A stretch of 64,000 nt of DNA from an uncultured delta proteobacterium (lineage in GTDB: Bacteria; Desulfobacterota; RBG-13-43-22): contig CAWDKY010000030.1 of NCBI GenBank assembly GCA_963802945.1, positions 241,046 through 305,045 on the forward strand. The letters run 5' to 3'. The position numbers and the translations under genes were made by a program. Positions within the stretch are counted from its first letter, which is position 1, and every line of letters starts with the position of its first letter. The notes beneath the pieces were generated by a model. It was not told the origin of the DNA and did not search any database. It worked only from the letters and a program-made list of their open reading frames with translations. Of this stretch, positions 12,295 to 27,873 are shown one piece after another.

Positions 12295-12337
12295 CGTTTT
12301 AGGAAATGGGGTTTTTGTTTTTGGGGAAAAAAGGAAT

Positions 12338-12893
12338 ATGGATTTTGATTTAACCGTTATCCCTGCCGAGAGAATTGAGCAGGCCATTTTTCTGATTCGT
12401 GGACTTCGGGTTATGATTGACGCCGACCTAGCTATGCTTTATGGAGTGACAACGAAGGTCCTCAATCAGGCTGTCAAACGCAACAAGGATCGTTTTCGGG
12501 AGATTTCATGTTTCAACTGACTGCGGAAGAAAAAATGGAGGCGGTCACAAATTGTGACCACCTTTCCCGGCTTCGCTTTTCACCAGTCCTCCCTTATGCC
12601 TTTACCGAGCATGGCGTCCTTATGCTTGCCAATATTTTAAACTCGGACCGCGCTGCGCGGGTTAGTGTTCAATTGTCCGTACCTTGGTACGATTGCGAGA
12701 AACATTGTCCACCCATGCTGATCTGGCCAGAAAAATCACCGAGATGGAAAAGAAGTATGATGCTCAGTTCAAAGTGGTTTTTGACGCCTTGCGGGCCTTA
12801 ATGGCTCCGCCACTGAAAACGAAACGAAAGATCGGCTTTGATCTCAAGGAAAAACAGGCACGATACAGCACAAAGAAACCTTCGCGAAAATAG
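12338..12893 (+). pseudogene. ORF6N-domain DNA-binding protein, copy 1 (two frameshifts, possibly read errors)
   Basis: [21 protein letters not shown]...NQAVKRN / FQLTAEE..VTNCDHL..PYAFTEHG / [21 protein letters not shown]. Confidence 0.85.
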
Positions 12894-13046
12894 GAGGTGT
12901 TGACTTTAACTGTTTGTTGTTTACCCTCGAAGTACCGCAACGTATGCAACAACGCCCCCCATGTCAACCTAATTTGGTTTTGTATCAGCATCCTCCTTTT
13001 ATATTTTATGTAGACTCTTGACACAGGATACGTTATAAGGCCCGCC

Positions 13047-13994
13047 ATGAGTTTGACGACAAAATTTATCATATTTCAGGCCATGATTATTGTGCCTTTT
13101 GTCCTTGGGTCATTGACCAAGGAACGCTTTTCCAATCAGACCGGTTTTAGCAAGAAGCTCGTCAGGATAAACCTTATCTGCATTGAGCCTTTAATCGTGC
13201 TCTGGAGCATTTGGGGAATCTCGCTCAAAAGTAATCTTGTGTTCTTACCCGTATTCGGCCTGGCTTTTGTCCTTACAGGAATGGCGATAGGGAAGATTTT
13301 TATCCCTGTTCTTGGCCTCTCAGGAAAGAAAAAAGCTACCTTTCTCATCAGTTCATCTCTGGCTAATCACGGGTTCACCATGGGTGGTTTTCTGTGCTAT
13401 CTGCTTTTGGGCGAGAAAGGGCTCGGGCTTTCTTTCATATTCATCTCCTACTTTATGCCCTACATATTCCTGGTCATATTTCCATATGCATCACTGGCCT
13501 CGACGCCTGCCCGATATGATAGGCGATTTGTCAAAGATTTTTTTACCAACATTCAGAACATGCCATTATATGTATTTTTCTTTGCCCTGGCTCTTCAGGG
13601 GTGCGGACTTAAAAGGCCGGAAATATTTTTCCCCATTGACATCCTGCTTATGATCGCTATTGCCTTGTATCATTTTTCCCTTGGCATCAATTTTGAGTTT
13701 AAAGAAGTCCTCTCTTCCTGTAAAGAAAATACAGCACTCGGCCTGATTAAATTTTTTATCATTCCCATGATCACCTTCCTGGTATTACGATGGGTAGCCA
13801 TTGATCCTCAGATAGAGGGAGTGATCATGCTTCAATCATTTATGCCTACGGCCGTTTATTCAGTGATGGCCCCTGTGCTCTATGATCTTGATGCCAAGCT
13901 GGCCTCATCTATGTTTGTGGTCAATACGCTCATTTTCCTCATGGTCGTGCTGCCGATAGTATTCATGCTCAAAACAAGCCTATTAGGAATGTAG
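13047..13994 (+). CDS. AEC (auxin efflux carrier) family transporter
   Basis: Multi-TM; ANHGFTMG, KFFIIP, QSFMPTAV. Confidence 0.8.
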   Translation: MSLTTKFIIFQAMIIVPFVLGSLTKERFSNQTGFSKKLVRINLICIEPLIVLWSIWGISLKSNLVFLPVFGLAFVLTGMAIGKIFIPVLGLSGKKKATFLISSSLANHGFTMGGFLCYLLLGEKGLGLSFIFISYFMPYIFLVIFPYASLASTPARYDRRFVKDFFTNIQNMPLYVFFFALALQGCGLKRPEIFFPIDILLMIAIALYHFSLGINFEFKEVLSSCKENTALGLIKFFIIPMITFLVLRWVAIDPQIEGVIMLQSFMPTAVYSVMAPVLYDLDAKLASSMFVVNTLIFLMVVLPIVFMLKTSLLGM

Positions 13995-14072
13995 AGGTAA
14001 TTCGGAAATTCCATATGGGGATTTAAGAATCTCCATGGAAAGGAAGCGGGACTGGATGCAAAGGGATTCACC

Positions 14073-14408
14073 ATGAAAAGAAAGACCAATTTTGATTTAT
14101 ACTTGGAAGAACAATTAAGAGATAAAGCCTTTGCCGCCCGTTTTAAAAAGGCCGGTGATGCCTGGGAGGTGGCCATGAAATTGGCCTCCCTGCGCAAAAA
14201 ATCAGGTTTATCCCAAAAAGAATTGGCCGAAAAAGTGGGAACATCCCAACAACAAATCAGCCGTCTGGAATCGCCGTCTTACGAAGGCCATTCTTTAAGC
14301 ATGTTGCGGCGCGTGACTGAGGCTCTGGGCGGAACGATTCATTTAGAGATTTATTACAAAAAGCAAACAAAGCCTTTGGCAGCGGCTGAAAGGAAAACAC
14401 CTTACTGA
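14073..14408 (+). CDS. XRE-family HTH protein, HigA-like antitoxin without an adjacent toxin
   Basis: LSQKELAEKVGTSQQQISRLE; N-terminus TNFDLYLEEQLRD. Confidence 0.85.
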   Translation: MKRKTNFDLYLEEQLRDKAFAARFKKAGDAWEVAMKLASLRKKSGLSQKELAEKVGTSQQQISRLESPSYEGHSLSMLRRVTEALGGTIHLEIYYKKQTKPLAAAERKTPY

Positions 14409-14444
14409 AAAAGTTGAACTCCCTCCCGGACAATCAGTATAAAA

Positions 14445-14571
14445 GAGTCATAATCCCAAGAGGATTGAAAGATTTCCGGAAAATTTTATGTTTTTCAGGC
14501 CGCCAAGGGTGAAATGGAATCTTCTTTGAAATCACAATTGGTGATTTCAAGTTAAGCAAAAGCGAAAATAG
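14445..14571 (+). pseudogene. Internally deleted ORF6N remnant retaining the palindromic segment
   Basis: RFPENFMF...SLKSQLVISS followed by GCGAAAATAGGAGTTG, the ORF6N 3' end. Confidence 0.65.
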
Positions 14572-14776
14572 GAGTTGTTGACTTTAACCAATTGATATAT
14601 TCTAAAGTATCCGTTCAAATGAAAGGCGAAGGAGTTTAACCCTTTGAATCCTCGAATCCTTGGCTCTGCTCGGCTCAGCTCGCCGCAAGCCTTGAACCCT
14701 GTTTTTCTTGAGGCTGGCCTAGGAAGCAGTCCTCTAACACCCCCATTTCTTGAAAAAAGAAATGGGGGTTCGTTTT
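14571..14776 (+). repeat. Repeat A, type-B leader plus terminator (copies also at about 19354-19563 and 22796-22998; partial 22110-22223)
   Basis: Near-identical GTTGACTT..ATATATTCTAAA.TATCCGTTCAAATGA...CTCGCCGCAAGCCTTGAACC...AGCAGTCC..CCCCATTTT..ATGGGG. Confidence 0.9.
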
Positions 14777-14899
14777 GAGGTGAATAATAAAAAGGAATAA
14801 ATCAAAAATAATCGGACCATGGGAAACGATAAGTTGTTTTAGGACCAAGGTCCCCTTCAACTATGAATTCAAAAACCATTTGGAGCAAGGAGGAAGGTA

Positions 14900-16450
14900 A
14901 TGAGTAAGCAGGCAGCTCTTAATGAGCTAAAAAGGCGTAAGGAAGTAACTCAGGCCTTAGGCGGACCAAAGGCCATTGAGAGGCACAGACAAAGAGGACA
15001 TCTGACCGCCAGGGAGCGGCTTGATAAATTGCTGGATAAGGGATCATGGCGGGAGATAGGAGAACTCGAGCAGTTTGTCGGACCGGATGGTCAGGAATAT
15101 CATGTCAATAAAATTCACGGATACGGCAAAATAAACGGTCGGATTGTCATCGTTCAGACTGATGACAGTACCATTCTGGCAGGGACAGGAGCCCCTAGTG
15201 TGTCAGGCCTGTCGCGGAAGAAAGGTCTTCACGACGATTTGCTGCCGGAAAGAAACTTCCCTTATATCAGGCTCGGTGAGAGCGGTGGTGTGCATCTACA
15301 AAGCGTCATGGGCTCCACCGGCGTGCTGGCTATAACCTACCCGGCCACGAGGTTACTCTATCCGCGACGCGTACCCAGGGTAACCGGTATTATGGGTTTA
15401 TGTTTCGGAGACCCAACCTGGCAAGCCTCCATATCCGACTTTGTGGTACAGGTTAAAGGGACCTGCATGGCTGTTTCCGGTCCACGCGTCTTGGAAGTGG
15501 CCTTAAGTGAAAAGATCTCCCCCGAAGAGCTGGGCGGCTGGAAGCTGCACGCGGAAGTGACCGGACAGGTGGATGCCTTTGCTGAGGACGATGAACACTG
15601 CCTGCAGATCATCCGGGAATATTTATCCTACATGCCCTCCCATTGCGATGAGGAGCCGCCCTACGTGACAACGGAGGATCCACCTGACCGCAAAACTGAA
15701 AAATTGATGGATATTATTCCGGATGTGTCCACCAGGGCTTATGACATGACCAGGGTAATCAAGGATATGGTGGATGACGGGAAAATTTTTATCCTGAAGC
15801 CCTTTTTCGGCAAAGCCCTTATCACCTGCCTGGCCCGCATGAACGGTCGAGTGGTAGGCATTCTGGCCAACCAGGTCCTTTATAATGTGGGTGCGGCCGG
15901 GGATCAGGAATGTGAAAAAGCCACCAGTTTTATAGTCCTTTGCGATTCCTTCAATATTCCGATCATCAATTTGTCGGACACCCCCGGTTTTTTAGTCGGC
16001 AAGGAAGCTGAACGCAATAAAATTCCATCTATGATCATGAATTGGATGGAGGCCCTGGCCCTGGCCACTGTGCCCAAGATCACGGTCATTATCCGTAAGG
16101 CCTACGGTATGGGTATTTCCAATATGGGCGGCCCGAACTGCGGGGCCGACTTTATCGCCGCCTTGACCACGGCTGAAATAAGTTTCATGTCTCCGGAAGC
16201 GGCGGCCAACGTGGTTTGGGAGCGAAAAATCGCTGAGGCTGAAGATCCGGAAAGGGAAAGAAAAAGACTGATCGAAGAAATGCAATACGGGAGTGCTCCC
16301 TGGCAGGCCGCTACTGACGGTTGGCTGGACGAGGTATTGGATCCCAGAGATTTGCGGACCTGGGTAATCGAGCGGCTGGAAATCATGCACAGCCGTAAAA
16401 ATGGTTTTATGAGTCAGAAGAAATTGCAGGATTGGCCAACCGGCTTTTAA
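14900..16450 (+). CDS. Acyl-CoA carboxylase carboxyltransferase subunit
   Basis: ARERLDKLLD, DTPGFLVG, IIRKAYG. Confidence 0.9.
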   Translation: MSKQAALNELKRRKEVTQALGGPKAIERHRQRGHLTARERLDKLLDKGSWREIGELEQFVGPDGQEYHVNKIHGYGKINGRIVIVQTDDSTILAGTGAPSVSGLSRKKGLHDDLLPERNFPYIRLGESGGVHLQSVMGSTGVLAITYPATRLLYPRRVPRVTGIMGLCFGDPTWQASISDFVVQVKGTCMAVSGPRVLEVALSEKISPEELGGWKLHAEVTGQVDAFAEDDEHCLQIIREYLSYMPSHCDEEPPYVTTEDPPDRKTEKLMDIIPDVSTRAYDMTRVIKDMVDDGKIFILKPFFGKALITCLARMNGRVVGILANQVLYNVGAAGDQECEKATSFIVLCDSFNIPIINLSDTPGFLVGKEAERNKIPSMIMNWMEALALATVPKITVIIRKAYGMGISNMGGPNCGADFIAALTTAEISFMSPEAAANVVWERKIAEAEDPERERKRLIEEMQYGSAPWQAATDGWLDEVLDPRDLRTWVIERLEIMHSRKNGFMSQKKLQDWPTGF

Positions 16451-16541
16451 ATGAATCCGCAAAGACTGAAGTCGTCGGCGTCTGGCCGATCGATCTCAGA
16501 AGATCCAGTTAATTACACGGAATCATCGTAGGAGGAGACAC

Positions 16542-17489
16542 ATGGAAAAACGCAAACTGGGAAATTCGGGATTGGAGATTGCCCCATTGGTTTTAGGTGG
16601 CAACGTATTCGGCTGGACTGCAGATGAATCCATGTCCTTTAAAATTATGGATGCCTTCATCGCGGCAGGATTCAACCTCATTGATACGGCGGATGTCTAT
16701 TCGCTGTGGGTTCCCGGTCATAAGGGCGGGGAGTCCGAAGCCGTTATTGGCAAGTGGCTGAAACAAAGAGGGAAAAGGACGGATGTGCTCATTGCCACCA
16801 AAGTCGGGATGCCGATGGGACCCGATAAGAAAGGATTATCGAAAGCCTATATTAGACGCGCCGTGGAAGATTCGCTCCAACGCCTGCAGACGGATTATAT
16901 CGATCTCTATCAGTCGCATACCGATGACCAGGACGCCCCCCAGGAAGAAACTTTAATTACTTATACACAACTGATCAAAGAAGGGAAGGTGAGGGCGATT
17001 GGCGCTTCGAATCACAGCGCAGAAAGGCTGGCCCGGGCACTGCAGATCAGTGAAGAGCATGGATTGGCCGCCCATCAGACTTTACAGCCTCTTTATAACC
17101 TCTATGACCGGGCCGGATTCGAAAAGGATCTCGATCCCCTCTGCCGTGAAAAAGGTCTGGGTGTGATCAGCTACTATTCATTGGCCAGCGGATTTCTCAC
17201 GGGCAAGTACCGATCGGAAAAGGATTTTACGAAAAGCCCCCGGGGACAGGGGATGAAACGTTTTCTTAATGACCGGGGATACAGGATTCTGGAGGCACTG
17301 GATCAAGTGGCCGGCCAGTATGGCGCTACTCCCGCGACCGTGTCGCTGGCCTGGATGCTCAAAAAGCCCGGCCTGACGGCCCCGATTGCCAGCGCCACTA
17401 GTCTGGAACAATTGAGCGAATTACTTAAAGCCCCTGGGCTTGATCTTGATAAGAATTCGATTGAATTGTTGAACCAGGCCAGTTCCTGA
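16542..17489 (+). CDS. Aldo/keto reductase
   Basis: GGNVFGWT, DTADVYS, DYIDLYQSH. Confidence 0.93.
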   Translation: MEKRKLGNSGLEIAPLVLGGNVFGWTADESMSFKIMDAFIAAGFNLIDTADVYSLWVPGHKGGESEAVIGKWLKQRGKRTDVLIATKVGMPMGPDKKGLSKAYIRRAVEDSLQRLQTDYIDLYQSHTDDQDAPQEETLITYTQLIKEGKVRAIGASNHSAERLARALQISEEHGLAAHQTLQPLYNLYDRAGFEKDLDPLCREKGLGVISYYSLASGFLTGKYRSEKDFTKSPRGQGMKRFLNDRGYRILEALDQVAGQYGATPATVSLAWMLKKPGLTAPIASATSLEQLSELLKAPGLDLDKNSIELLNQASS

Positions 17490-17648
17490 CCTCAGGTCCC
17501 GTTTTGATCTCGAAGAGAAACAAGCCCGGTATGGCTTTTCCCTAACATCTTATCACTGACATCTTCCTCTGCTTTTTATCCTAAGGGATATCAGTCAGTT
17601 ATTCACTAACATCTTTTTACTGATATCTTCTTGCTCTTTATGCGGGGG

Positions 17649-18003
17649 GTTGACTTTAATTTTTAACAGGTTTAATAAGTTATATTACCTTAGCTTCATA
17701 ACTATAAAGCGAATAGCCGTCAACAGGCCTAACCGCTGTTCGCCGAACAACGAACGATCCGGCTTCCATTCGATCGGCTTTGCCGATCTCAGGGGGAGAC
17801 TCCCTGAAGGGAGTCGGACAGGGAGCCTCTTTTGAAGCCCGGCATATCTGCTCCTAACTGGGAGCCTTTTCAAAAGCTCGACGAAGTCGAGCGGGTCCGG
17901 GCGGAACGAACTACGAACGACGAACGTTTTTAGTACCGAAAGGCGTCCATGAAGCAGTTCAACCAAACCCCATTTTTTTAAAAAAGAAATGGGGATTTTT
18001 TTT
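17649..18003 (+). repeat. Repeat A, type-A leader with a REP-like insertion, plus terminator
   Basis: TTGACTTTAA..GCTTCATA..AAAGCGAATAGCC-variable-CCGAAAGG..TCCATGAAGCAG..CCCCATTTT..ATGGGG. Confidence 0.9.
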
Positions 18004-18024
18004 ACAATCTCTCATTGAGATCTT

Positions 18025-18567
18025 ATGGAATCTTTAGTGCCAGTGGAGGTTATTGAAAAGAAAATATTTTTGATTCGAGGTCAAAAAGTTTTGCTGGATA
18101 GAGATCTTGCTGATCTCTATGATGTGGAAACCAGGGCGTTGAACCAAGCGGTTCAACGCAATATTAAGAGATTCCCGAATGATTTCATGTTTACTTTGAC
18201 CAGAGAGGAGATCATGAGGATATCACAAATTGTGACATCCTCCGACATTAAATTCTCCAAACAAGTTCGTGCTTTTACGGAGCAAGGCGTGGCTATGCTT
18301 TCCGGAATCCTGAATAGCGATCGAGCGATAGAAGTGAATATTCAAATTATGCGGGCTTTTGTAAAACTCCGGGAGATGATCGCTACTAATAAAGACCTGG
18401 CCCGGCGGCTGGATAATCTGGAAAAGAAATATGACAGCCAGTTCAAAGTGGTCTTTGACGCCCTGCGGGCTTTAATGTCCCCGCCGGCCAAAACCAAACG
18501 TAAAATAGGTTTTGATTTAAAGGAGAAGCAGGCACGGTACGGCATAAAGAAATCTTCGCGAAAATAG
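18025..18567 (+). CDS. ORF6N-domain DNA-binding protein, copy 2
   Basis: [51 protein letters not shown]. Confidence 0.92.
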   Translation: MESLVPVEVIEKKIFLIRGQKVLLDRDLADLYDVETRALNQAVQRNIKRFPNDFMFTLTREEIMRISQIVTSSDIKFSKQVRAFTEQGVAMLSGILNSDRAIEVNIQIMRAFVKLREMIATNKDLARRLDNLEKKYDSQFKVVFDALRALMSPPAKTKRKIGFDLKEKQARYGIKKSSRK

Positions 18568-18571
18568 GAGT

Positions 18572-18790
18572 TGTTGGCTTAACTGGTTAATAGGTTTATA
18601 AATAAATCACTTAAACCTGGCTTCATAAATATAAAGCGAATAGCCCTCAACAGTCAGCAGTCAGCCTAAGCCCTTTAGATTTTTCCTGACCGCCGATCGC
18701 TGATTACTGACAGCTCTAAACCAAAGGATCGTCCATGAAGCAGTCCCCCAAGACCCCATTTTTTAAAAGAGAAGATGGGGTTTTTGTTTG
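18572..18790 (+). repeat. Repeat A, type-A leader plus terminator
   Basis: Same conserved ends; heptamer-repeat middle. Confidence 0.9.
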
Positions 18791-18805
18791 CGGAGGAAAT
18801 TCTAA

Positions 18806-19354
18806 ATGGATTCTATAATCCCAGTAGAAGTGATTGGACGAAAAATTTTATTGATCCGCGGCCAAAAGGTGATGCTGGATGCCGATCTGGCAAAGCTTTA
18901 CGGGGTGACAACCAAGAGATTGAATGAACAAGTTAGGCGGAATCAGGGACGATTTCCTGAAGATTTTATGTTCCAATTGAGCTCTGATGAAAAAGCTGAG
19001 GTGGTCGCAATTTGCGACCACCTTGCCAAACTTAGATTTTCCCCTACTCTCCCCCATGCCTTCACTGAACATGGAGTTCTCATGGTTGCCAGTGTGCTTA
19101 ATACCACAAAAGCTATTGAAATTAGCGTCTTCGTTGTACGGGCTTTCGTTAAAATGCGGGAGATGGTTATCTCAAACAAAGAAATTGTCCGGCGGCTGGA
19201 TAATCTGGAAAAGAAATATGACAGCCAGTTCAAAGTGGTCTTTGATGCCCTGCGGGCATTGATGGCCCCGCCACTGAAAACGAAACGAAAGATCGGCTTC
19301 GACCTCAAAGAAAAACAGGCACGGTACGCCATAAAGAAATCTTCGCGAAAATAG
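18806..19354 (+). CDS. ORF6N-domain DNA-binding protein, copy 3
   Basis: [42 protein letters not shown]. Confidence 0.92.
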   Translation: MDSIIPVEVIGRKILLIRGQKVMLDADLAKLYGVTTKRLNEQVRRNQGRFPEDFMFQLSSDEKAEVVAICDHLAKLRFSPTLPHAFTEHGVLMVASVLNTTKAIEISVFVVRAFVKMREMVISNKEIVRRLDNLEKKYDSQFKVVFDALRALMAPPLKTKRKIGFDLKEKQARYAIKKSSRK

Positions 19355-19648
19355 GAGTTGTTGACTTAAACTAATTGATATATTCTAAATTATCCGTTCA
19401 AATGAGACGCATAGGAGTTTAACCCTATGAATCCTCGAATCCTTGACTCTGCTCGGCTGAGCTCGCCGCAAGCCTTGAACCATATTTTTTTGAGGCTGGT
19501 CCATTTAGCAGTCCGACAAGACCCCATTTTTTGAAAAAGAAGATGGGGTTTTTATTTGGAGGGAAGGTGACTCAGAAACAACGTCCCCGCCGGCAGACTA
19601 CAGAAAAAGATTGACAAAAAGATCAAATAAGTTATCATAATATTTATC

Positions 19649-19933
19649 ATGTTGATTTCGTACAAACCGCCATCTAACAAATTTGTAAAAAAACAGGCTA
19701 GGTCGTTTCAACTGGTAATCGAAGACGAGGTCGAAGCCGTCATTCAAAATCCGTTAGCCGGAGAGACCAAGAAGGGTGATTTGACCGGTTTCAGGATTCA
19801 TAAATTTTCTTTTCAGGGTCAAAAATTCCTCTTGTCTTATGTTATTCGAACCGAGGGAATCGTTTTTTTTACGATCGGCTCCCATGAAAATTTTTATCGG
19901 GAATTAAAAAAGTATTTAAAGGAGGTGGGTTAA
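19649..19933 (+). CDS. RelE/ParE-family toxin
   Basis: NPLAGETKKGDLTGFRIHKF...IGSHENFYRELK. Confidence 0.82.
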   Translation: MLISYKPPSNKFVKKQARSFQLVIEDEVEAVIQNPLAGETKKGDLTGFRIHKFSFQGQKFLLSYVIRTEGIVFFTIGSHENFYRELKKYLKEVG

Positions 19934-20242
19934 ATGATCACCGCCGAAAAAGTGTATAAAGAAATTTTGGATATGCAGGTCAAGGAGAGAGAAAAACTCT
20001 TCACCGTTATTGCCAGGAAGGGTTTTGAGAAAGATTCCTATTCCCACGAAGAGGTTTTCGGCGATATACGGGAATCTCCCTTTATACTCAGAGAAGCCGC
20101 CGAATATCTGGAAGTGGCCGAAATAACCCTGAGGCGATGGGTGCAATCCGGTCTCATTCCGTATGAAAAAGTTGGAAGGAATATCGTTTTCGATCCTGAT
20201 GAACTGAGGCGGGTTAAGAAATCAAAGACGAAAAAAAGATAA
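19934..20242 (+). CDS. Putative antitoxin with excisionase-like (HTH_17) domain
   Basis: Abuts the toxin stop codon; EAAEYLEVAEITLRRWVQSG. Confidence 0.75.
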   Translation: MITAEKVYKEILDMQVKEREKLFTVIARKGFEKDSYSHEEVFGDIRESPFILREAAEYLEVAEITLRRWVQSGLIPYEKVGRNIVFDPDELRRVKKSKTKKR

Positions 20243-20318
20243 AAAGCCAATTATCAAAAAAAAGAAGTTATCACTTCATCCCCAATTTCTTAACAAAGCA
20301 GGCAAAACCTTACCCGAA

Positions 20319-20380
20319 AGGCTGTCCATTAAGCAGTCCATCATGACCCCATTTTTTAAAAAAGAAGATGGGGTTTTGTT
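20319..20380 (+). repeat. Repeat A core (small hairpin plus terminator)
   Basis: AGGCTGTCCATTAAGCAGTCC..ACCCCATTTTTT..AGATGGGGTTTT. Confidence 0.85.
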
Positions 20381-20404
20381 TAAATAATTTTAATTGAGGT
20401 TCCT

Positions 20405-20734
20405 ATGAATTCTTTAGTGCCGGTGGAGATTATTGAAAAGAAGATTTTTTTAATCCGTGGCCTTAAAGTGATACTGGACACTGATTTGGCAGAGCTTTAT
20501 GGTGTTGAAACAAAATATCTAATTAAAGCGGTCAAGAGAAATCTTTTGCGGTTTCCTGATGATTTTATGTTCCAACTCAATAAAGAGGAATCTGAAAACT
20601 TGAGGTTCCATCTTGGCACCTCAAGTCAGTGGGGAGGACGGCGTTATTTTCCCTATGCCTTTACCGAGCAGGGGGTGGCAATGCTTTCCAGCATCCTAAG
20701 CAGTGACCAGGCTGTCAAAGCGAATAGCCTTTAG
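20405..20734 (+). pseudogene. ORF6N copy 4, 3'-truncated
   Basis: Normal N-terminal domain; sequence switches into the repeat-A leader at about 20717. Confidence 0.85.
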
Positions 20735-20875
20735 CCTTCAGCAGTCAGCCTGAGCCCTTTAGGTTTTTCCTGACCGCCGATCGCTGATTGCTGACAGCTC
20801 TAAACCAAAGGATCGTCCATGAAGCAGTCCCCCAAAACCCCATTTTTCTAAAAAAGAAATGGGGGTTTTGTTTTG
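20717..20875 (+). repeat. Repeat A, type-A leader (5'-truncated) plus terminator
   Basis: Near-identical to 18633-18790. Confidence 0.9.
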
Positions 20876-20915
20876 AAGTGGATAATAGAATGGGAGGCAG
20901 TCTTAAGATTGGGGC

Positions 20916-20960
20916 TTGATTTGTGATCCTATTTTGAGTACAATAGAACCCATTATGAGT
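20916..20960 (+). promoter_or_regulatory. MNT-HEPN promoter with a direct-repeat operator candidate
   Basis: TTGATT-N17-TACAAT; imperfect repeat CCTATTTTGAGTAC / CCCATTATGAGTAC overlapping the -10 and the ATG. Confidence 0.55.
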
Positions 20961-21551
20961 ACGAAACAAATTCGCGATAATCTCTCCATGGCCCTTTTCG
21001 GCAAGACCAAACGAGCCTTGCTGGCCTTGTTTTTTTCCAACCCGGAGGAATCCTTTTACCTACGCCAGATTGCCAGGATAACCGCTGCCGGTCAGGGATC
21101 TGTTCAGCGAGAGTTAAAAAAATTAGCCGAGGCCGGCATCATCGAGCGTATTGAACAGGGCCGACAGGTCTATTTCAGAGCCAAAAGTAACTGTCCCATT
21201 TTCGATGAGCTAAAGGGGCTGATATTAAAAACCGCCGGATTGGTGGAGGTGCTTCGATCCGCTTTATCGCCGGTGTCCGATAAGATCGATCTGGCTTTCG
21301 TATTTGGTAGTCAAGCCCGAGGGAAAGCCAAGGCTGCCAGTGACATTGATTTATTAATTGTCGGGAATGTCGATGAGCTTGAACTACATCGGTTGATCAG
21401 CCAGACAGAGGGGCAACTGAACCGCTCCATCAATTACACCTTTTTGACCGCTCAAGAGTTTAAAAAACGCAAAAAAGAAAAGGGGGGGTTTCTCTCAAGA
21501 GTCCTGGCAGGGGAGAAGATTTTCATTATAGGAGACGGGCATGGATCTTGA
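20955..21551 (+). CDS. wHTH plus minimal nucleotidyltransferase (MNT) antitoxin
   Basis: VFGSQARG..SDIDLLIVG; N-terminal HTH. Confidence 0.88.
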   Translation: MSTKQIRDNLSMALFGKTKRALLALFFSNPEESFYLRQIARITAAGQGSVQRELKKLAEAGIIERIEQGRQVYFRAKSNCPIFDELKGLILKTAGLVEVLRSALSPVSDKIDLAFVFGSQARGKAKAASDIDLLIVGNVDELELHRLISQTEGQLNRSINYTFLTAQEFKKRKKEKGGFLSRVLAGEKIFIIGDGHGS

Positions 21552-21978
21552 GACACTCCTCAAAGAGGGACGAGTTCATCAGGAAAAAATATCGTCTCAA
21601 GAGATCCATAGGGCCTTGGCTAGAGCGGAAAGGGATTTAAAAACAGCGAGAAAAATAATGGCCGAGGACTGGGATTGGGGTTTCTCGATCACCTATAATG
21701 CCGTCCTCCAAGCTTCCCGGGCTTACATGTTTGCGCAGGGCTATCGCCCATCTCATGGAGAAGGTCATAAAAATACTTTCGCCATCATGAAAATCTTCAT
21801 GGGGAAAGAGTACGAGGACTTAATTTCCTATTTTGACCGCATGAGGAATAAACGAAATCAAGCTATTTATGATGTGGCCGGATTGATTACCGAAACGGAG
21901 GCCAGAAACCTATTTTCCAAAGCGACTGAATTTATAAAATTGATCCGCCGCAGTCTGACAGATAAAAATAGCGGCTAA
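21541..21978 (+). CDS. HEPN-domain protein (partner of MNT)
   Basis: Overlaps the MNT stop; YNAVLQASRA..GYRP..H..RNKRNQAIYD. Confidence 0.85.
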   Translation: MDLETLLKEGRVHQEKISSQEIHRALARAERDLKTARKIMAEDWDWGFSITYNAVLQASRAYMFAQGYRPSHGEGHKNTFAIMKIFMGKEYEDLISYFDRMRNKRNQAIYDVAGLITETEARNLFSKATEFIKLIRRSLTDKNSG

Positions 21979-22247
21979 TTTTTAGAACTTAGCTTTATTG
22001 ATTCCGGCAAACTGTTAACTAAACCCTCAAACTTACTTGTTGCGGACACCACTAATCATGAAAATAATTAATGGGGTTAACTGCCACGCCGTTCACTCCG
22101 CCTGCGGTCCTCGAATCCTCCTAAGCTCGTCGCAGGTCCTTGAATCCTGTTTTCCTGTTAAGACTGGTCCATGAAGCAGTCCGAAAAGCCCCCATTTTTT
22201 GAAAAAGAAGATGGGGATTTTTTAACCAATCTCTCATTGAGGATCTT

Positions 22248-22820
22248 ATGGAATCTTTAGTGCTCGTTGAGATTATCGAGAAAAAAATTTTATTGATCCG
22301 CGGCCAAAAGGTGATGCTGGATGCCGATCTGGCAAAGCTTTACGGGGTGACAACCAAGAGATTGAATGAACAAGTTAGGCGGAATCAGGGACGATTTCCT
22401 GAAGATTTTATGTTCCAATTGAGTCTGATGAAAAAGCTGAGGTGGTCGCAATTTGCGACCACCTTGCCAAACTTAGATTTTCCCCTACTCTCCCCCATGC
22501 CTTCACTGAACATGGAGTCTCTCATGGTTGCCAGTGTGCTTAATACCACAAAAGCTATTGAAATTAGCGTCTTCGTTGTACGGGCTTTCGTTAAAATGCG
22601 GGAGATGGTTGTGTCAAACAAAGAAATTGTCCGGCGGCTGGATAATCTGGAAAAGAAATATGATTCCCAGTTTAAAGTGGTCTTTGACGCCCTGCGGGCT
22701 TTAATGTCCCAGCCAATAAAGCCTAAGCGAAAAATTGGTTTTGACTTGAAAGAGAAGCAGGCCCGATACAGCATAAAGAAATCTTCGCGAAAGGAGGAGT
22801 TGTTGACTTTAACTAATTAA
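22248..22820 (+). CDS. ORF6N copy 5 (near-duplicate of copy 3 with compensating -1/+1 indels)
   Basis: DNA nearly identical to 18845-19250; indels near 22424 and 22519. Confidence 0.85.
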   Translation: MESLVLVEIIEKKILLIRGQKVMLDADLAKLYGVTTKRLNEQVRRNQGRFPEDFMFQLSLMKKLRWSQFATTLPNLDFPLLSPMPSLNMESLMVASVLNTTKAIEISVFVVRAFVKMREMVVSNKEIVRRLDNLEKKYDSQFKVVFDALRALMSQPIKPKRKIGFDLKEKQARYSIKKSSRKEELLTLTN

Positions 22821-23213
22821 TATATTCTAAATTATCCGTTCAAATGAGATGCATAGGAGTTTAACCCCATGAATCCTCGAATCCTTGACTCTGCTCGGCT
22901 GAGCTCGCCGCAAGCCTTGAACCCTGTTTTTTTTGAGTCTGGTCCATGAAGCAGTCCCCCAAAACCCCATTTTAAAAAAAAGATGGGGGTTTTGTTTTGG
23001 CGTGGATGATAAAAGAGAGTAGAATGCTTGGGTCAAATCAAAAACAATCGGACAAATGGGGAGAAATAAGTTGTTTTAGAACCAACGTCCCCTCTTAATG
23101 AAGCAACCGCACTAGGCCCCATTTTAAAAGAAGATAGGTTTTTGTTTTGGTTAAGGACAAAATTTAAACTGTTTCAGACCTGACTTCCCCCTTTACAGTT
23201 TATAATACAGGCC

Positions 23214-24044
23214 ATGATAGAAACCATCTTGGTGGGCAAGGTAGATGAATCCTTTCTTCTGGAGGTCCAAAAATGGGCGGAAGAGGTTGTTGGGAAAACC
23301 GAGCCCGGGACGGTCCCGGATCGTATTTCCGTTTACCTCTGGGAGAATGGAAACGATTTTAAGGAATTTGATGCCCGAGAAAAAGCCGAGTTGGGGGTAG
23401 TCACCGGTGATGAATCCAACTTTCTGGCCACCCACGAGGCCTGGAGGGGTTACCCTAGGATTCATATATCCCTGGAAAAGATCCAGGGAATTCCTGAAGA
23501 AGTCATCCAGGGCGTAGTTCAACATGAGATCGGCCACGCCCTGGTCCATGGTAAGCCGGAATTTTATCAATTTCTTTTTTCCGAACTGCTTCAGGAAACC
23601 GCTAGGTCGGCGGGACTGGATCTACCCCAGCTCCAGCAGTTGGTTTATTTGCTTTCCGTGGCTCTGAAAGACGAAGAAGTGGTCAGGCTATTAAGTGAAA
23701 GGGGATTAGGAATTTACCAAAATCGGGTACTGGAATATTTAATAGAAGATACGGGGGAGGAGCAACAGACTTGGGAACTGATTAAGGATATGCCGGCTCT
23801 GAGAAAATTAGCCTGGGCCGCTTTTTCAAAAACCCTTCTGCCGATTGAAACTTTGGCCGGATTGGGCGATCCGGAATCCAGTCCTCTGATAGAGCAATGG
23901 GAGAAGGCCTATTCCTGGCTCACCAACCGGGAAAGGACCGACCTAAGGGCTTATGCGCGGTTGGTCATTGAATTGCCCTCTAAAAATTTCCAGGATCGAT
24001 TGGAACAAGCCGTCTTGAGATTGATCAACAGCGCTTCACTATGA
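23214..24044 (+). CDS. Hypothetical protein with HExxH zinc-metallopeptidase motif
   Basis: QHEIGHALVH. Confidence 0.6.
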   Translation: MIETILVGKVDESFLLEVQKWAEEVVGKTEPGTVPDRISVYLWENGNDFKEFDAREKAELGVVTGDESNFLATHEAWRGYPRIHISLEKIQGIPEEVIQGVVQHEIGHALVHGKPEFYQFLFSELLQETARSAGLDLPQLQQLVYLLSVALKDEEVVRLLSERGLGIYQNRVLEYLIEDTGEEQQTWELIKDMPALRKLAWAAFSKTLLPIETLAGLGDPESSPLIEQWEKAYSWLTNRERTDLRAYARLVIELPSKNFQDRLEQAVLRLINSASL

Positions 24045-24163
24045 AATGAACTGGAACTCTGTGTATATCTGAGAGTTGACCCAGGCCCGATATGGCATAA
24101 GGAAAGTACGGGGAGTTGGAAAGCGGTTGGTTTAATTAGTATAGCGTCTCCGTACTTCCATTC

Positions 24164-24646
24164 TTAGTATCCCAATTCCTTTAATATTGAAGAAAGTCTT
24201 TGTAATCGCTCGCTGAGTAGTTCATCATCATTGCTTAACGCTTGCTGAAATAATTTTATATCCTCATCTATTTTGGGGTTGTCTGTACATACTGCTATTG
24301 TCATGGAATCGCCTTGCAGACCGACTCTGTCAATTACTGTTTTTTCAGAATCATAAAGTTTTGTATGACGATAAGCCTCTGAAGCAAAATACTGTTTTGC
24401 TCTGCAAACAAAAATTGCAAGATCAAGCACACGGTGAAGGGGTAATTCTTCAGATTGCCTTGACCACTTTTCACCTGTATGTCTCCAAACTTTTGCTGAG
24501 ATATCAACGTTCCCCCTGTCATTCCATTGAGCCAAGCCTAATGAAAGCCCCTTGGCATCGGTCTTGTAAGCATATCGGCCATCAACATTTTCGTAATTTT
24601 CAGAAACAATAACAGGTTTATGTTTTAATATTGCTGGTATTTTCAT
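24164..24646 (-). CDS. Conserved hypothetical protein (DUF6530-like), AT-rich
   Basis: MKIP..LKHKPVIV..NYENVDG..DAKGLSLGLAQWNDRG..SAKVWR..EKWSRQSEELPLHRVLDL (recognised from memory). Confidence 0.65.
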   Translation of the reverse strand: MKIPAILKHKPVIVSENYENVDGRYAYKTDAKGLSLGLAQWNDRGNVDISAKVWRHTGEKWSRQSEELPLHRVLDLAIFVCRAKQYFASEAYRHTKLYDSEKTVIDRVGLQGDSMTIAVCTDNPKIDEDIKLFQQALSNDDELLSERLQRLSSILKELGY

Positions 24647-24789
24647 AATTTTAATATTCCTTTATGTAGTTATTTACTTGTGTAGTCAACTAATAGTTTA
24701 GTAAATAACTTATCATACTAATAACAAACCTGTCAAGCAAAAAAGTAATTGACTATTTTTAGGTTGCTCCCAAAAACAATTCCCTTGGG

Positions 24790-25018
24790 GTTGACTTTAA
24801 TTTTTAATAGGTTTAAATAAGTTATATTAACTTGGCTTCATAAACATAAAGCAAATAGCCTTCAGTATTCAGCAATTAGCCTGGATGTTTTTAAGGTTTC
24901 TTTGAACACCGAACTCTGAACGCTGAACGCCGAACGTTCCCAGAACCGAAAGGCTAGCCCATGAAGCAGTCCCCCAAGACCCCATTTTTTTGAAAAAGGA
25001 GATGGGGTTTTTGTTTTG
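24790..25018 (+). repeat. Repeat A, type-A leader plus terminator
   Basis: Conserved ends; middle with (C)TGAACG-type heptamers. Confidence 0.9.
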
Positions 25019-25315
25019 GGGCGGAAGCAGGGCCATTTACTTGAATGATTTTTTAGTTGGGAAATAAGGGTTGGGGTTCGACCATAGACAGCCCTATTTT
25101 CATGTCCCGGCTTCCGATCCGCTCGGTCCGCTCGACCTGGCCGACTAGTGGTGTCAAGACCTGCCTTGTGCAGGCATACGCCCCTGGCGGGGCATGACTG
25201 TTCAAAAGGCAATTTAGTCAGCAGCGTCCGGGACAGCAAGGAATCCGGCATTTTGTTTACATTTAAGATTTGCCCCCTGGATCTATGAAAGTCAACCCAA
25301 TTAAGGGAGGGAAAA

Positions 25316-25753
25316 ATGGAAAAATTGACCTTTGAATTCGTGAATCCGGGGGATGTCCTTCCTCCATTCATCCGATCCGTCAGTCAGGAAACCTTTTGGA
25401 AATACGCCGTGGCCTCTTTCGATTATAACCCTGTCCACAATGATCCTGAATGGGTCAAAACGGCCCAACCCTTTAAAATACCTTTTACGGTGGGGCATGG
25501 TATGATGACTATGTCTTTTATGACCTCTCTGGTTACCAACTGGGCCTTACCGTCCATGCTTCAGGTTCGGAAGATTGTTTCTAAATTTACTCGGCCGGTT
25601 GAGCAGGGATGGGAAATTATCTGCACCGGAGTTGTCTCGGAAAAGCACTTTATCGCCAAAGGGAAAAACTATGTGGTGGTGGATGTCAAAGCTGAAAATC
25701 GGCAGGGTGACTTGCTGGCCCTCAGTGAAATCGAAGTGGTCTTTCCCGATTGA
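25316..25753 (+). CDS. MaoC-family dehydratase
   Basis: YAVASFDYNPVHND, GHGMMT. Confidence 0.88.
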   Translation: MEKLTFEFVNPGDVLPPFIRSVSQETFWKYAVASFDYNPVHNDPEWVKTAQPFKIPFTVGHGMMTMSFMTSLVTNWALPSMLQVRKIVSKFTRPVEQGWEIICTGVVSEKHFIAKGKNYVVVDVKAENRQGDLLALSEIEVVFPD

Positions 25754-25810
25754 GACCGGGGGTTTTATCGATTGGATCAATTTCGAGATTCAAAGAAAGG
25801 AGAATGAACC

Positions 25811-26389
25811 ATGAGTCATGCCGATTTAGCCAAATATTTCAAAACAGAAAAGCAGCTCAAATTCAGCACCGATTTTTTTACCGATGCCGAAAACTATGAA
25901 GTTTGGGATGAAATTGATTTTTCCGATCTACAAGAAGTTGACGGTGAAAACACCTTTGAAATAAAGGCCGAAGACATCAAATTTTACGCCGAAGGAGGCC
26001 TTGACGACAACCCGCTGATGAATGACGAGGAATACGCCAAGAAATCATCCTACGGCGGGCTGGTGGCCCACCCGATTTTTATAACCTCCATCTGTTTTTG
26101 GTGTGTGGGCGTCAAGGGGAAGGGAAATTGGATCAGAACGCCCGGGGCGAGAAACCCTGGTCAGGTTTTGGAAATCTATGAATATTTCAAAGTCGGAGAA
26201 ACCATTCATGTAACAATGAAGCCCCATGACCGCTATATCAAACGGGGTAAATGTTATCTCCAGTATCAAATGAACGCCTTTAACCAGGATAATGTTTTGA
26301 AATGCAGAATGTTTGCCACCCTGATCCTGCCTCGGACACGCCAGGATATAGGGAAATTTCTTAAAGGCATCCGCGGTCTAAGTGATTAG
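25811..26389 (+). CDS. MaoC-like hotdog-fold dehydratase partner
   Basis: IKFYA..DDNPLMNDEEYAKKSSYGGLVAHP. Confidence 0.8.
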   Translation: MSHADLAKYFKTEKQLKFSTDFFTDAENYEVWDEIDFSDLQEVDGENTFEIKAEDIKFYAEGGLDDNPLMNDEEYAKKSSYGGLVAHPIFITSICFWCVGVKGKGNWIRTPGARNPGQVLEIYEYFKVGETIHVTMKPHDRYIKRGKCYLQYQMNAFNQDNVLKCRMFATLILPRTRQDIGKFLKGIRGLSD

Positions 26390-26402
26390 CCAAGAAACCG
26401 GA

Positions 26403-26463
26403 AGGATGGTCCTTGAAGCATCCTATAATACCCTATTTTTTGAAAAAGAAGATGAGGTTTTTT
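26403..26463 (+). repeat. Repeat A core with compensatory stem changes
   Basis: GGATG-GTCCTTGAAG-CATCC followed by a terminator-like hairpin. Confidence 0.8.
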
Positions 26464-26483
26464 AGTCACAATTGGATGATGAG

Positions 26484-26599
26484 ATTCCAATTTGGAATAC
26501 CAAAAACGAGCGATGAACCAGTCGCAATTTGCGACCGGTTCCAAAAATAAGATTAGCCTGGGAGTTTGAGTCTTTGAGATCACAAATTGTGATCTCAAA
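26484..26599. repeat. Three free ORF6N-type palindromes
   Basis: 26484-26498 (7-1-7), 26515-26541 (13-1-13, one mismatch), 26573-26599 (13-1-13). Confidence 0.9.
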
Positions 26600-26643
26600 A
26601 TTAAAAGGGGATTAGTTAAAGAAGTCATTTGAAGAGGATCTTG

Positions 26644-27210
26644 ATGGAAAAAAAGGAGTTAATCCCGCAGGAAATCATTGAGGGCAAAATCTTCCTTATC
26701 AGAGGTAAAAAGGTCATGCTCGATCGGGATCTGGCTGTTCTTTATGGAGTTGAGACAAAGGTCATAAACCAGGCGGTCAAAAGAAATTCTCAAAGGTTTC
26801 CAGAGGATTTTATGTTCCAGTTGTCCACTGAGGAGACTCAGCAATTTTTAAGGTCACAATTTGTGACCTTAAAAAGAGGACAGCATTACAAATACTTACC
26901 TTATGTTTTTACAGAGAATGGTGTGGCCATGCTCTCCAGTGTCCTTAATACCGAGAGGGCAATCCAGGTCAATATTCAAATCATGCGAACCTTTACCCGG
27001 TTAAGGGAGATCATCGCCACTCATAAAGATTTGGCGCGGCGTCTGGATGACCTGGAGAAAAAGTACGATAGCCAGTTCAAAGTGGTCTTTGACGCCCTGC
27101 GGGCTTTAATGGCCCCTCCTGTTAAGCCAAAACGAAAAATAGGTTTTGATCTCAAGGAGAAACGGGCACGGTATTCCATAAAAGGTGTTCAACGGGAGAA
27201 AAGGAAGTAA
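26644..27210 (+). CDS. ORF6N-domain DNA-binding protein, copy 6
   Basis: [52 protein letters not shown]. Confidence 0.92.
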
Positions 27211-27267
27211 CGTTTTCTTCTGCTTTTCCACCGCCATCTTGCCACTAACACCTTTATTCGGGAGGGA

Positions 27268-27457
27268 TTGACTTTAATTTTTAATAGGTTTAAATAAGTT
27301 ATATTAACTTGGCTTCATAAAGATAAAGCGAATAGCCAACCGTTGATCGCCGAACGACGAACTACGAACGACAAACGTTTTTAGTACCGAAAGGCCGATC
27401 CATGAAGCAACCTACCAAGACCCCATTTTTTGAAAAAGAAGATGGGGTTTTTGTTTT
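27268..27457 (+). repeat. Repeat A, type-A leader plus terminator
   Basis: Conserved ends; short ACGAACT/ACGAACG middle. Confidence 0.9.
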
Positions 27458-27532
27458 GGGTTTGCTGATAAAAGAGAGCATTATTTTTGTTATAAAATAA
27501 ATGGGCGCTGTCCCTATTTAAAACCGAAAAAA

Positions 27533-27781: not shown

Positions 27782-27873
27782 GGTTCAAAAAATTATCCTA
27801 TTAAGAGTATCTAAACAAACACAAGAAGCCATGCCAACAATGAATGTCGTTGAGCTTTAGCGTAAAGGGAAAT

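Follow-up and report, generated by a model that had tools for sequence, protein, structure and literature searches.

A near-perfect DNA palindrome at one place in the coding sequence of ORF6N genes, a candidate cis-acting site of their own products

Genes of ORF6N, a widespread family of small DNA-binding proteins, carry a near-perfect DNA palindrome, near-fixed at one place in the coding sequence, which keeps its position and symmetry independently of what it encodes. Our literature search found no description of a palindrome within ORF6N genes. In our preferred reading, to which we give a probability of about one half, the ORF6N protein is the predicted binder of the palindrome in its own gene, which would serve it as a cis-acting DNA site. 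Palindromes of the same kind also stand free upstream of ORF6N genes; these are new relative to the earlier inspection of this DNA from its letters (hereafter, the sequence-only reading).

The window is a 64,000-nucleotide stretch of contig CAWDKY010000030.1, from an uncultured delta proteobacterium. Six ORFs on its forward strand match the Pfam ORF6N profile (PF10543) with 54.9–120 bits, against a gathering cut-off of 27.8 bits. When the letters were rechecked, the six palindromes of the sequence-only reading proved accurate in coordinates, arms, mismatches, and codon phases, and all of them are contained in ORFs with an ORF6N match. Specifically, the gene at 12236–12893 is broken by frameshifts (ORFs 12236–12520, 12508–12801, and 12684–12893, with one internal stop in the Pfam match) and holds a 12-1-12 palindrome with one mismatch at 12539–12563, centred on codon position 2. 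The intact gene at 18025–18567 (180 aa) holds a 13-1-13 palindrome with one mismatch at 18216–18242, and the gene at 20405–20734, truncated past the domain (109 aa), a 14-1-14 palindrome with two mismatches at 20598–20626. Both are centred on codon position 1, as is the perfect 15-1-15 palindrome at 26845–26875, which encodes residues 68–77 of the product of the intact gene at 26644–27210 (188 aa from the ATG at 26644; the listed ORF begins at a TTG at 26629). The intact gene at 18806–19354 (182 aa) belongs to the second-frame class, its perfect 12-1-12 palindrome at 18999–19023 being centred on codon position 2. An identical palindrome occupies 22440–22464 in a near-copy of that gene at 22248–22820 (190 aa, ORF open). 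Relative to the 18806 gene, the near-copy has one base fewer before the palindrome and one more after it, 96 nt apart, which puts the segment into the other frame. Four further ORF6N copies lie elsewhere in the genome, and all ten copies have an odd-centred palindrome at the same site, one of them having two.

The homologues were collected by peptide patterns flanking the segment, and the sample thus represents one subfamily, within which 124 of 145 unique ORF6N genes from many phyla contain the in-gene palindrome and 21 have none above threshold. It is present in all six plasmid-borne genes from named bacteria; tandem pairs of palindromes occur in some genes, and a gut-virus group of copies has arms of only 6–7 nt. 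When the whole domain is searched for its best odd-centred palindrome, this lies 30–46 nt past the conserved motif in 134 of 154 unique homologous domains, and 60–88 nt past it in 8 further ones. The palindrome background does not exceed 0.03 per 50-nt bin, and other genes in the flanks show background only. Given the fixed site and these flanks, we rejected an in-frame mobile palindromic insertion of the Rickettsia RPE type.

The proposal of the sequence-only reading that the constraint acts on DNA symmetry and not on the peptide is upheld by synonymous shuffles, by amino-acid covariation, by the use of two frames, and by non-coding copies. In the shuffle control it had suggested (100 synonymous-codon shuffles for each of 154 genes), 12.53 of 15 positions at the site are paired in the observed genes versus 6.71 of 15 in the shuffled ones, and in 117 of the genes no shuffle ever reached the observed pairing. 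The arms do differ while remaining self-complementary, as had been claimed: at 12 of 14 paired positions, both partners vary. Among 120 distinct 35-nt rows, 89.1 per cent of cells are paired (65.1 per cent in shuffles) and 409 cells are changed on both sides (136.7 ± 9.3 in shuffles). The covariation score is 0.609 (0.179 shuffled), a value that none of 500 shuffles reached and that falls to 0.172 or less in slid registers. Amino acids encoded by one arm vary together with those of the other, in just the way that pairing between their codons demands. Additionally, related genes read the palindrome in different frames, and the frame was switched more than once (AU p = 0.009). Shuffles, covariation, and the two frames together place the constraint at the nucleic-acid level, which favours a site of the gene's own product.

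These results bear on the possibility that the palindrome has no function, a conserved peptide being encodable as a quasi-palindrome that arm-to-arm template-switch correction then perfects and maintains. The peptide alone does yield 6.7 of 15 pairs where 3.75 are expected at random, mismatches between arms are mostly transitions without strand bias, and the palindrome is kept in frameshifted copies. We nevertheless find this explanation highly improbable, given that the palindrome sits at one site across phyla in different frames and that RhuM and Bro-N genes have such a palindrome too, built from different sequences. Moreover, copies of the ORF6N palindromes are found outside coding DNA, in a favoured position upstream of ORF6N genes, and 9 of the 66 perfect palindromes with arms of at least 11 nt in the genome come from this one family.

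Three such non-coding palindromes precede the gene at 26644: a 7-1-7 palindrome at 26484–26498, a 13-1-13 palindrome with one mismatch at 26515–26541, and a perfect 13-1-13 palindrome at 26573–26599, whose centre is 58 nt before the ATG and which overlaps a promoter-like match (−35 and −10) at 26574–26601. Elsewhere in the genome, upstream sites were found at the copy on contig C12. At least one upstream palindrome, 20–150 nt before the start, is present in 32 of the 145 ORF6N genes, and none above threshold in 113. Over 149 unique genes, the sites form two position peaks, with 128 at +150 to +250 and 36 at −150 to −1. Upstream arrays comprise 2–4 sites spaced 31–58 nt apart. Three ORF6N genes without an in-gene site at threshold carry an upstream one, and a RhuM gene without an in-gene palindrome has one 38 nt before its start. 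The concentration of the same palindromes outside coding DNA upstream of ORF6N genes, the overlapped promoter-like match, and these four genes all favour a cis-acting site of the gene's own product.

Among the options raised by the sequence-only reading (an intragenic operator co-evolving with the segment that it encodes, a hairpin-templated diversification hotspot, or a recombination site), the operator gains most, through the free-standing copies clustered upstream of ORF6N starts. Its co-evolution with the encoded segment fared less well: arm likeness between upstream and in-gene sites is 0.519 within the same gene and 0.482 between different genes, a slight difference that is not significant (185 of 3000 permutations reach the same-gene value). 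The upstream and in-gene sites of one gene are usually different variants, which counts against the preferred reading. In Butyrivibrio pCY186, however, the upstream (−29) and in-gene (+222) sites share the same unusual arm (match 0.94), which argues for it; at L108 the two sites match at 0.89. Simple autoregulation would predict the reverse of what is seen, the in-gene site being far commoner than the upstream one (124 versus 32 genes), and this too counts against the preferred reading.

Both sets of sites could also be seen as hairpins of the mRNA, in coding sequence and leader, that act in ribosome pausing, RNA processing, or protein-bound translational autoregulation. The stems are stable as RNA too, several upstream copies, 18–70 nt ahead of the start codon, could be part of the transcript, and the in-gene copy is always at the same distance from the start. 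Yet G·U is not favoured: of 1606 cells within stems, 26 are G·T and 49 are A·C, the opposite-strand wobble. The loop also occurs in both orientations (57 versus 44 and 20 versus 9). From the lack of a G·U preference and the use of both orientations we conclude that the constraint is on DNA rather than mRNA. One upstream site, moreover, covers promoter-like −35 and −10 elements, and a search of positions 11000–28500 gave no Rfam match at E values up to 1. We therefore consider an RNA hairpin quite unlikely, and the wobble counts, centre orientations, and Rfam result favour instead a DNA site for the encoded protein.

The N-terminal domain of ORF6N proteins is helix-turn-helix-like, and a long helix comes after it. 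If the proteins bind these sites, they would do so as dimers, each dimer recognizing a site of ~27 bp with an A/T-rich centre. One copy of the site would be embedded ~200 nt past the start codon, with further copies often in the promoter or leader, and binding would regulate the gene through promoter occlusion, as a roadblock, or by forming a loop of ~270 bp. With the site inside the gene, the two would be inseparable when the gene moves; and with the palindrome in a change-tolerant loop of the domain, the DNA requirement would dictate the local peptide and could be read in more than one frame. Co-occurrence is what points to ORF6N as the putative binder: it is the sole factor common to all compared genomes, which favours this reading. 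So does the structure predicted for the 26644 product, in which the palindrome-encoded residues fall at the end of a helix and in a loop of pLDDT below 50, and a long helix (residues 104–140) follows the ORF6N domain. Weak fold matches of the ORF6N protein to solved DNA-binding proteins (best E 0.1) argue against it. Additionally, a dimer on duplex DNA needs no perfect symmetry over 13–17 bp, so that arm correction or cruciform extrusion must be assumed; the symmetry at freely varying positions probably reflects arm-to-arm correction (template switching in quasi-palindromes), a need for cruciform extrusion, or both.

Folded DNA may itself be the functional form, either as a hairpin formed by single-stranded DNA or as an extruded cruciform, and serve replication, transfer, recombination, or infection sensing. 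The ORF6N gene and its palindrome would then be a self-contained selfish or defence module and not a simple autoregulated gene, and ORF6N may be a structure-specific binder. Such a role is possible, though we think it rather unlikely. Covariation keeps up to four Watson–Crick pair types per position of a ~13 bp stem, free-standing copies are perfect over arms of 15–17 bp, the centre is always A/T-rich, predicted DNA hairpins reach −7.9 to −13.9 kcal/mol (z −3 to −8), and the tandem second palindromes of some genes fit as well. The genes are solitary and multi-copy, with most copies chromosomal, and adjoin unrelated genes (119 Pfam families over 148 flanking ORFs, none occurring more than twice), while ORF6N identity across phyla reaches 53–71 per cent. 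Two Segatella copri plasmids (2955 and 4140 bp) are annotated with only rep and an ORF6N gene. A defence role is also suggested by matches of the window proteins to three PADLOC defence-candidate models, PDC-S05, with E values down to 1e-61 over the whole model (1.2e-61, 1.7e-55, and 2.1e-126 for three proteins of the genome). On the other side, a profile search of the ~190-aa proteins found no nuclease, recombinase, HUH, or recognizable initiator domain, only ORF6N and a weak Rha or PLD-like match. The family has only about 18 sites in the genome, and in this genus gene movement appears to involve cassettes with a different repeat at their borders. A REP/RAYT-like or IS200/IS605-like hairpin element was rejected on that site count and on finding no HUH/tyrosine transposase.

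The palindrome apparently extends to relatives of ORF6N, being present at a fixed site in 21 of 30 RhuM and 10 of 21 Bro-N genes, with sequences other than those of ORF6N. An hhalign comparison of ORF6N with the N-terminal part of RhuM gave a weak match (probability 2.85 per cent, E 0.016) in which the palindrome-encoded segments are aligned in register, and both fall under the PDC-S05 models. The window proteins also match phage anti-repressor PHROGs (PHROG 4792), with Rha as a compared family. In the available text of a preprint (10.1101/2024.09.26.614923), one PDC-S05 representative gives about 1000-fold protection against T7 and T5; it is described there with a RhuM domain, whereas the window proteins are of the short ORF6N type. 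The available texts of the sources on PDC-S05 (this preprint included), the anti-repressor PHROGs, and Rha do not mention the palindrome.

As for a diversification hotspot, the repeated frame switches and the one copy with a compensated double frameshift around its palindrome are indirect hints. In its fullest form, the palindrome would encode the variable loop within the same DNA-binding domain by which it is recognized, so that arm-to-arm copying by hairpin-templated correction would alter site and reader in one step. We hold this to be improbable. If true, the family would be a built-in generator of mutually orthogonal protein–site pairs, and frame switching would add further variants. It would also explain why co-resident paralogues have different palindromes (the near-copies 18806 and 22248 share one), why more genes have the in-gene site than the promoter site, and why the palindrome is kept in the ORF6N, RhuM, and Bro-N branches of this phage and defence-island superfamily.

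Few poorly understood proteins are as common in phages, plasmids, and defence islands as those of the ORF6N, RhuM, and Bro-N families. If the palindrome is a conserved cis site, the sequence of each such gene directly gives a testable DNA target for its protein. The palindrome would equally be a clear example from nature of a DNA-level requirement overriding coding, with amino-acid covariation and different frames as the result, and annotation and evolutionary models that treat the segment as ordinary protein would be misled.

Several known systems resemble parts of this arrangement. The Bro-N-type protein Roi of phage HK022 reportedly binds within its own gene; it would be a superfamily relative that binds DNA inside its own coding region, as proposed here for ORF6N, and we know of no report of a palindrome or of family-wide conservation in that case. 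Rickettsia palindromic elements are palindromic repeats inserted in frame into protein genes and, as here, are palindromic DNA translated in a tolerant surface segment. They are mobile, spread over unrelated genes, and found in some orthologues but not in others, whereas the ORF6N palindrome is short, keeps to one homologous position, and occurs only in one DNA-binding superfamily and its upstream regions. In the pT181 family, the replication origin lies inside the initiator gene, with a cruciform-forming repeat within repC. The likeness is a structure-forming inverted repeat inside the gene of the acting product, with specificity diverging among relatives; unlike repC, ORF6N has no recognizable initiator or nuclease domain, and its copies are mostly chromosomal and solitary. 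Binding sites of a DNA-binding protein inside its own or a regulated coding sequence are known from parS within parB/spo0J, lacO2 in lacZ, and galOI in galE, which are coding-embedded palindromic protein-binding sites that cooperate with sites near the promoter or are where the protein loads, and that travel with the gene. Unlike these, the ORF6N site is at one codon-level position family-wide, and apparently in related families, and as a candidate site it is 27–35 bp long and near-perfect, has covarying arms, and dictates the peptide in different frames.

Six ORFs between 12.2 and 27.2 kb of the window score as Pfam ORF6N. Three are intact (18025–18567, 18806–19354 and 26644–27210), one is truncated after the domain (20405–20734), one is broken by frameshifts (12236–12893), and one is a near-copy of the gene at 18806 (22248–22820). 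The sequence-only reading had located an odd-centred palindrome in each of these ORFs, and it is indeed present there in all six. Genome-wide (4.37 Mb in 72 contigs) there are 10 ORF6N copies, and the four outside the window carry the palindrome at the same place (4/4), one of them as a tandem pair. The ORF6N-type family accounts for 9 of the genome's 66 perfect palindromes with arms ≥ 11 nt and a gap ≤ 5. Three perfect 11-1-11 palindromes that lie within 350 nt on another contig (C16:110006, 110282 and 110354) and differ at one symmetric position are a second covarying family, unrelated to the ORF6N type. Upstream of the first ORF6N copy, a 70-nt remnant of an ORF6N 3′ end (11485–11554, 84 per cent identical to 27142–27211) sits within a spurious ORF.

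Homologues were drawn from two pools: species-representative genomes spanning many phyla, with 595 confirmed relatives, and viral contigs, with 184; the best 80 were taken from each. Because peptide patterns flanking the segment were used for retrieval, this set samples a single subfamily. With an HMM built on the window's proteins, 194 ORFs were obtained, 163 of them unique and 154 unique with a full domain. The domain's best odd-centred palindrome is located 30–46 nt past a conserved motif in 134 of these 154 genes and 60–88 nt past it in 8 more, and its score is at least 10 in 110 of the 154. When compared with synonymous-codon shuffles (100 per gene), a control that the sequence-only reading had called for, pairing at the site is well in excess: 12.53 of 15 pairs are observed versus 6.71 of 15 in the shuffles. 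The peptide alone therefore pairs more than random sequence does, but far less than is observed. No shuffle matches the observed pairing in 117 of the 154 genes, whereas at least 10 shuffles do so in 5 genes.

Per-position pairing was assessed on 146 rows, after removal of 8 of the 154 that have no site at the expected place. Watson–Crick pairing is found in at least 115 of the 146 rows at each position 2–13 from the centre and declines past positions 13–15. Among 120 distinct 35-nt rows, pair counting gives 89.1 per cent of cells paired (65.1 per cent in shuffles), and changes on both sides occur at 12 of 14 pairs, in 409 cells versus 136.7 ± 9.3 in shuffles. Covariation of the two arms, also named beforehand as a test, is strong across homologues, with a score of 0.609 versus 0.179 for shuffles; none of 500 shuffles scores as high, and slid registers reach at most 0.172. 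Footprinting in approximately 19 near-identical viral contigs was uninformative, the variation among them being too small.

At the palindrome, the DNA dictates the local peptide. The centre coincides with codon position 1 in the majority of genes, so that the second codon before the centre pairs with the first codon after it. The residue pairs at those two codons (Ser/Val, Ser/Ala, Phe/Gly, Cys/Gly and Tyr/Gly) are precisely the pairs expected from complementary codons, and the outer codons behave likewise (e.g. Arg or Lys versus Thr or Ile). Translation of the palindrome core in two frames, first noticed in the window's copies, extends to the homologues: the core is read one base out of phase, with its centre on codon position 2, in 12 of 154 genes (9 of the 146 kept rows), and this reading gives an unrelated peptide. 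On a segment-masked tree, which has few columns and on which recombination could also yield a scattered pattern, the nine second-frame rows require eight state changes, at least three of them forced by well-supported branches. A tree uniting the nine rows is rejected (AU test; log-likelihood 149.6 lower, P-value = 0.009).

The copy at 22248 illustrates how a frame switch can happen. Relative to the copy at 18806, to which it is otherwise identical over approximately 330 nt, a one-base deletion precedes the palindrome and a one-base insertion follows it at a distance of 96 nt. These indels shift DNA of the second-frame class into the first frame over the palindrome without closing the ORF. The indel pair may reflect either a genuine compensated frameshift or an assembly artefact involving near-identical paralogues. 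In a look-up of sequencing runs, the 24 rows listed have small shares of at most 0.12, and no RNA run is among them.

An AlphaFold2 model built from 105 sequences (mean pLDDT 78.9) has a long helix (residues 104–140) after the ORF6N domain. Mapping the segment onto this model, as had been suggested, places residues 68–77, encoded by 26845–26875, at a helix end and in the sole stretch with pLDDT below 50 (residues 73–80), so that the palindrome would sit where the domain is least constrained. The dimer prediction (score 0.19 versus a mark of 0.42) counts neither way. A sequence search of solved structures returned coiled-coil noise only, and a fold search gave no match at E ≤ 0.001, the best being a Ski/Dachshund-type domain (E = 0.1), with weak MerR/MarR-like rows.

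The symmetry could in principle reside in the transcript or in the gene. In the stems, 26 G·T versus 49 A·C cells were counted among 1606, so wobble pairs of the transcribed strand are not favoured. Both orientations of the centre are used (57 versus 44 for one-base centres; 20 versus 9 for the commonest three-base centre), and an Rfam search found no family match for the palindrome. A role in mRNA is therefore improbable. By wobble counts and orientations alike the constraint is strand-symmetric and thus acts on the DNA; the sequence-only reading had proposed DNA symmetry as the target in contrast to the peptide.

The main new result of our analysis is that palindromes of the same family also occur outside coding sequence. 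Upstream of the gene at 26644, three such free-standing palindromes are found in non-coding DNA (26484–26498, 26515–26541 and 26573–26599); the last overlaps a promoter-like match (26574–26601) that on its own is no better than shuffles. On contig C12, one lies approximately 60 nt before the start of that contig's ORF6N copy and another is flanked by a HigA-like gene and a small gene. Others are situated inside a 150–250-nt repeat on further contigs of the genome (C14:31367, C14:129564, C15:516627, C19 at approximately 1500 and C27 at approximately 60850). The flanks of the palindrome in this repeat translate like a decayed ORF6N segment, and the C14:31367 copy precedes an IS110-like transposase gene by approximately 200 nt.

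Across 149 unique homologues, family palindromes form two sharp peaks, with 128 sites at +150 to +250 (mostly at approximately +198) and 36 sites at −150 to −1, while all other 50-nt bins over approximately 3.5 kb hold at most 0.03 family palindromes per gene. At the threshold used, the 145 genes with enough upstream sequence divide into 95 with an in-gene site only, 29 with both, 3 with an upstream site only and 18 with neither. Where upstream sites are present they often occur as arrays of 2–4 (spacing 31–58 nt, with 36 nt recurring in two loci), and upstream arms reach a perfect 17 nt. The arm types of upstream sites are those of in-gene sites, second-frame types included, even though upstream sites are free of coding constraint. 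By eye, the distances from upstream to in-gene sites, which bear on a possible helical phasing, include approximately 269–271 bp in several unrelated loci. In a group of viral contigs (L110–L147) and a Bacteroides ovatus plasmid (L175), a tyrosine integrase gene comes immediately before the ORF6N gene; the gap from integrase stop codon to ORF6N start holds a palindrome in the viral contigs.

The flanks of 80 genome loci contain 119 Pfam families over 148 ORFs, each at most twice and many of them housekeeping. With no conserved partner in the flanks, the ORF6N protein is the only common candidate reader. Given where the sites lie, that the constraint is strand-symmetric and that no other factor is common to the loci, we put at roughly 0.5 the probability that the palindrome is a cis-acting DNA site recognized by the protein that the gene encodes, the putative binder being suggested by co-occurrence. 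Palindromes of co-resident paralogues differ in all eight loci with more than one copy. Were every protein specific for its own variant, a gene's upstream site would be expected to resemble its in-gene site. In 33 genes (dereplicated from 43), similarity is 0.519 within the same gene and 0.482 between different genes, a result reached by 185 of 3000 permutations in a scan that also lets in unrelated upstream palindromes. A striking match is nevertheless seen in some genes, such as that of Butyrivibrio pCY186, where the sites at −29 and +222 have an unusual arm in common.

Simple autoregulation on duplex DNA is a poor fit, because in-gene sites are more widespread than upstream ones and symmetry is perfect at freely varying positions. 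In view of these two observations, we regard a role as folded DNA, of which the ORF6N protein may still be the binder, as possible, if unlikely. As single-stranded DNA, the window sites have predicted folding energies of −7.9 to −13.9 kcal/mol (z −3.0 to −8.4), which makes a hairpin or cruciform physically plausible. Arm-to-arm correction occurs in quasi-palindromes and would explain the perfection of the arms both for a cis-acting site and for folded DNA; that the palindrome is purely a mutational by-product is very improbable.

A set of 151 genomes from the window's phylum was searched for RhuM (PF13310) and Bro-N (PF02498) genes. RhuM is present in 52 of them, and in 21 of 30 fetched loci a palindrome (score at least 8) is centred 11–15 nt into the Pfam match, approximately 150–275 nt past the inferred start codon and with its centre on codon position 3. 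In 29 RhuM genes, the site has 10.76 of 12 pairs; synonymous shuffles, scored at whichever of the same 13 centres is best, give 7.96. For 18 of the 29, none of 50 shuffles equals the observed pairing, and positions 3–8 from the centre have 2–4 pair types. The one locus left out of this set has a later match start and no in-gene site; its palindrome is 38 nt before its start. Bro-N is present in 15 of the 151 genomes, and 10 of 21 loci have a palindrome (score at least 7) at 130–154 nt past model position 1, which is a raw palindrome count, the synonymous-shuffle controls covering ORF6N and RhuM. Profile–profile similarity between ORF6N and the RhuM N-terminus is weak (probability 2.85 per cent, E = 0.016), and the alignment puts the palindrome-encoded segments opposite each other. 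The palindrome thus seems to be shared by a broader set of related DNA-binding domains, whether or not the sites descend from a common ancestor. Two Bro-N loci (L232 and L233) have upstream palindromes with arms of the RhuM type, 156 and 103 nt from the start of the Bro-N domain, which hints at sites of one family next to genes of another.

Within the window, 14716–27451 looks like an array of single-gene cassettes, and it contains ORF6N copies, toxin–antitoxin-like pairs and a nucleotidyltransferase/HEPN-like pair (20916–21978). Between nearly all of its genes there is a repeat of approximately 64 nt on the + strand (at 17935, 18721, 19489, 20314, 20805, 22157, 22932, 24947, 26398 and 27388, with weaker + strand copies at 1896 and 14716), in which a terminator-like hairpin with a T run follows a conserved box. 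On contig C27, part of the intergenic repeat that precedes another ORF6N copy recurs at many places in same-genus genomes. In an empty-site comparison with relatives, only the neighbouring 405-aa gene was common and both flanks differed, leaving no definable insertion boundary.

Plasmids of Legionella pneumophila, Bacteroides ovatus, Sulfuricurvum kujiense, Butyrivibrio proteoclasticus and Segatella copri also carry ORF6N genes (41–53 per cent identity to the window's protein), and all six plasmid genes examined have the in-gene palindrome at the expected place, the two Segatella genes with a different core. A replication initiator and ORF6N are the only annotated genes of two Segatella copri plasmids, L172 (NZ_CP152354.1, 2955 bp) and L173 (NZ_CP152486.1, 4140 bp), which suggests that the ORF6N function is useful to a minimal replicon. 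A 9-1-9 A/T-centred palindrome is located just after the rep gene of L172 (1151–1169). The window proteins match anti-repressor PHROGs as well as the PADLOC defence-candidate models PDC-S05 (E down to 1e-61); in a preprint, one PDC-S05 representative, described there as a RhuM-domain protein, is reported to lower T7 and T5 plating approximately 1000-fold (10.1101/2024.09.26.614923).

The sequence-only reading knew of no description of the ORF6N in-gene palindrome, and our literature search, which had most subscription journals outside its reach, likewise found none. The finding is directly testable and hence of high interest. Binding sites embedded in coding sequence are known, among them parS in parB and the auxiliary lac and gal operators, and the ORF6N case is like these in that its palindrome is embedded in coding sequence. 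What is new is that the position is fixed across the family, that near-perfect arms covary and so impose covariation on the amino acids, that the site is read in different frames, and that matching arrays lie upstream.
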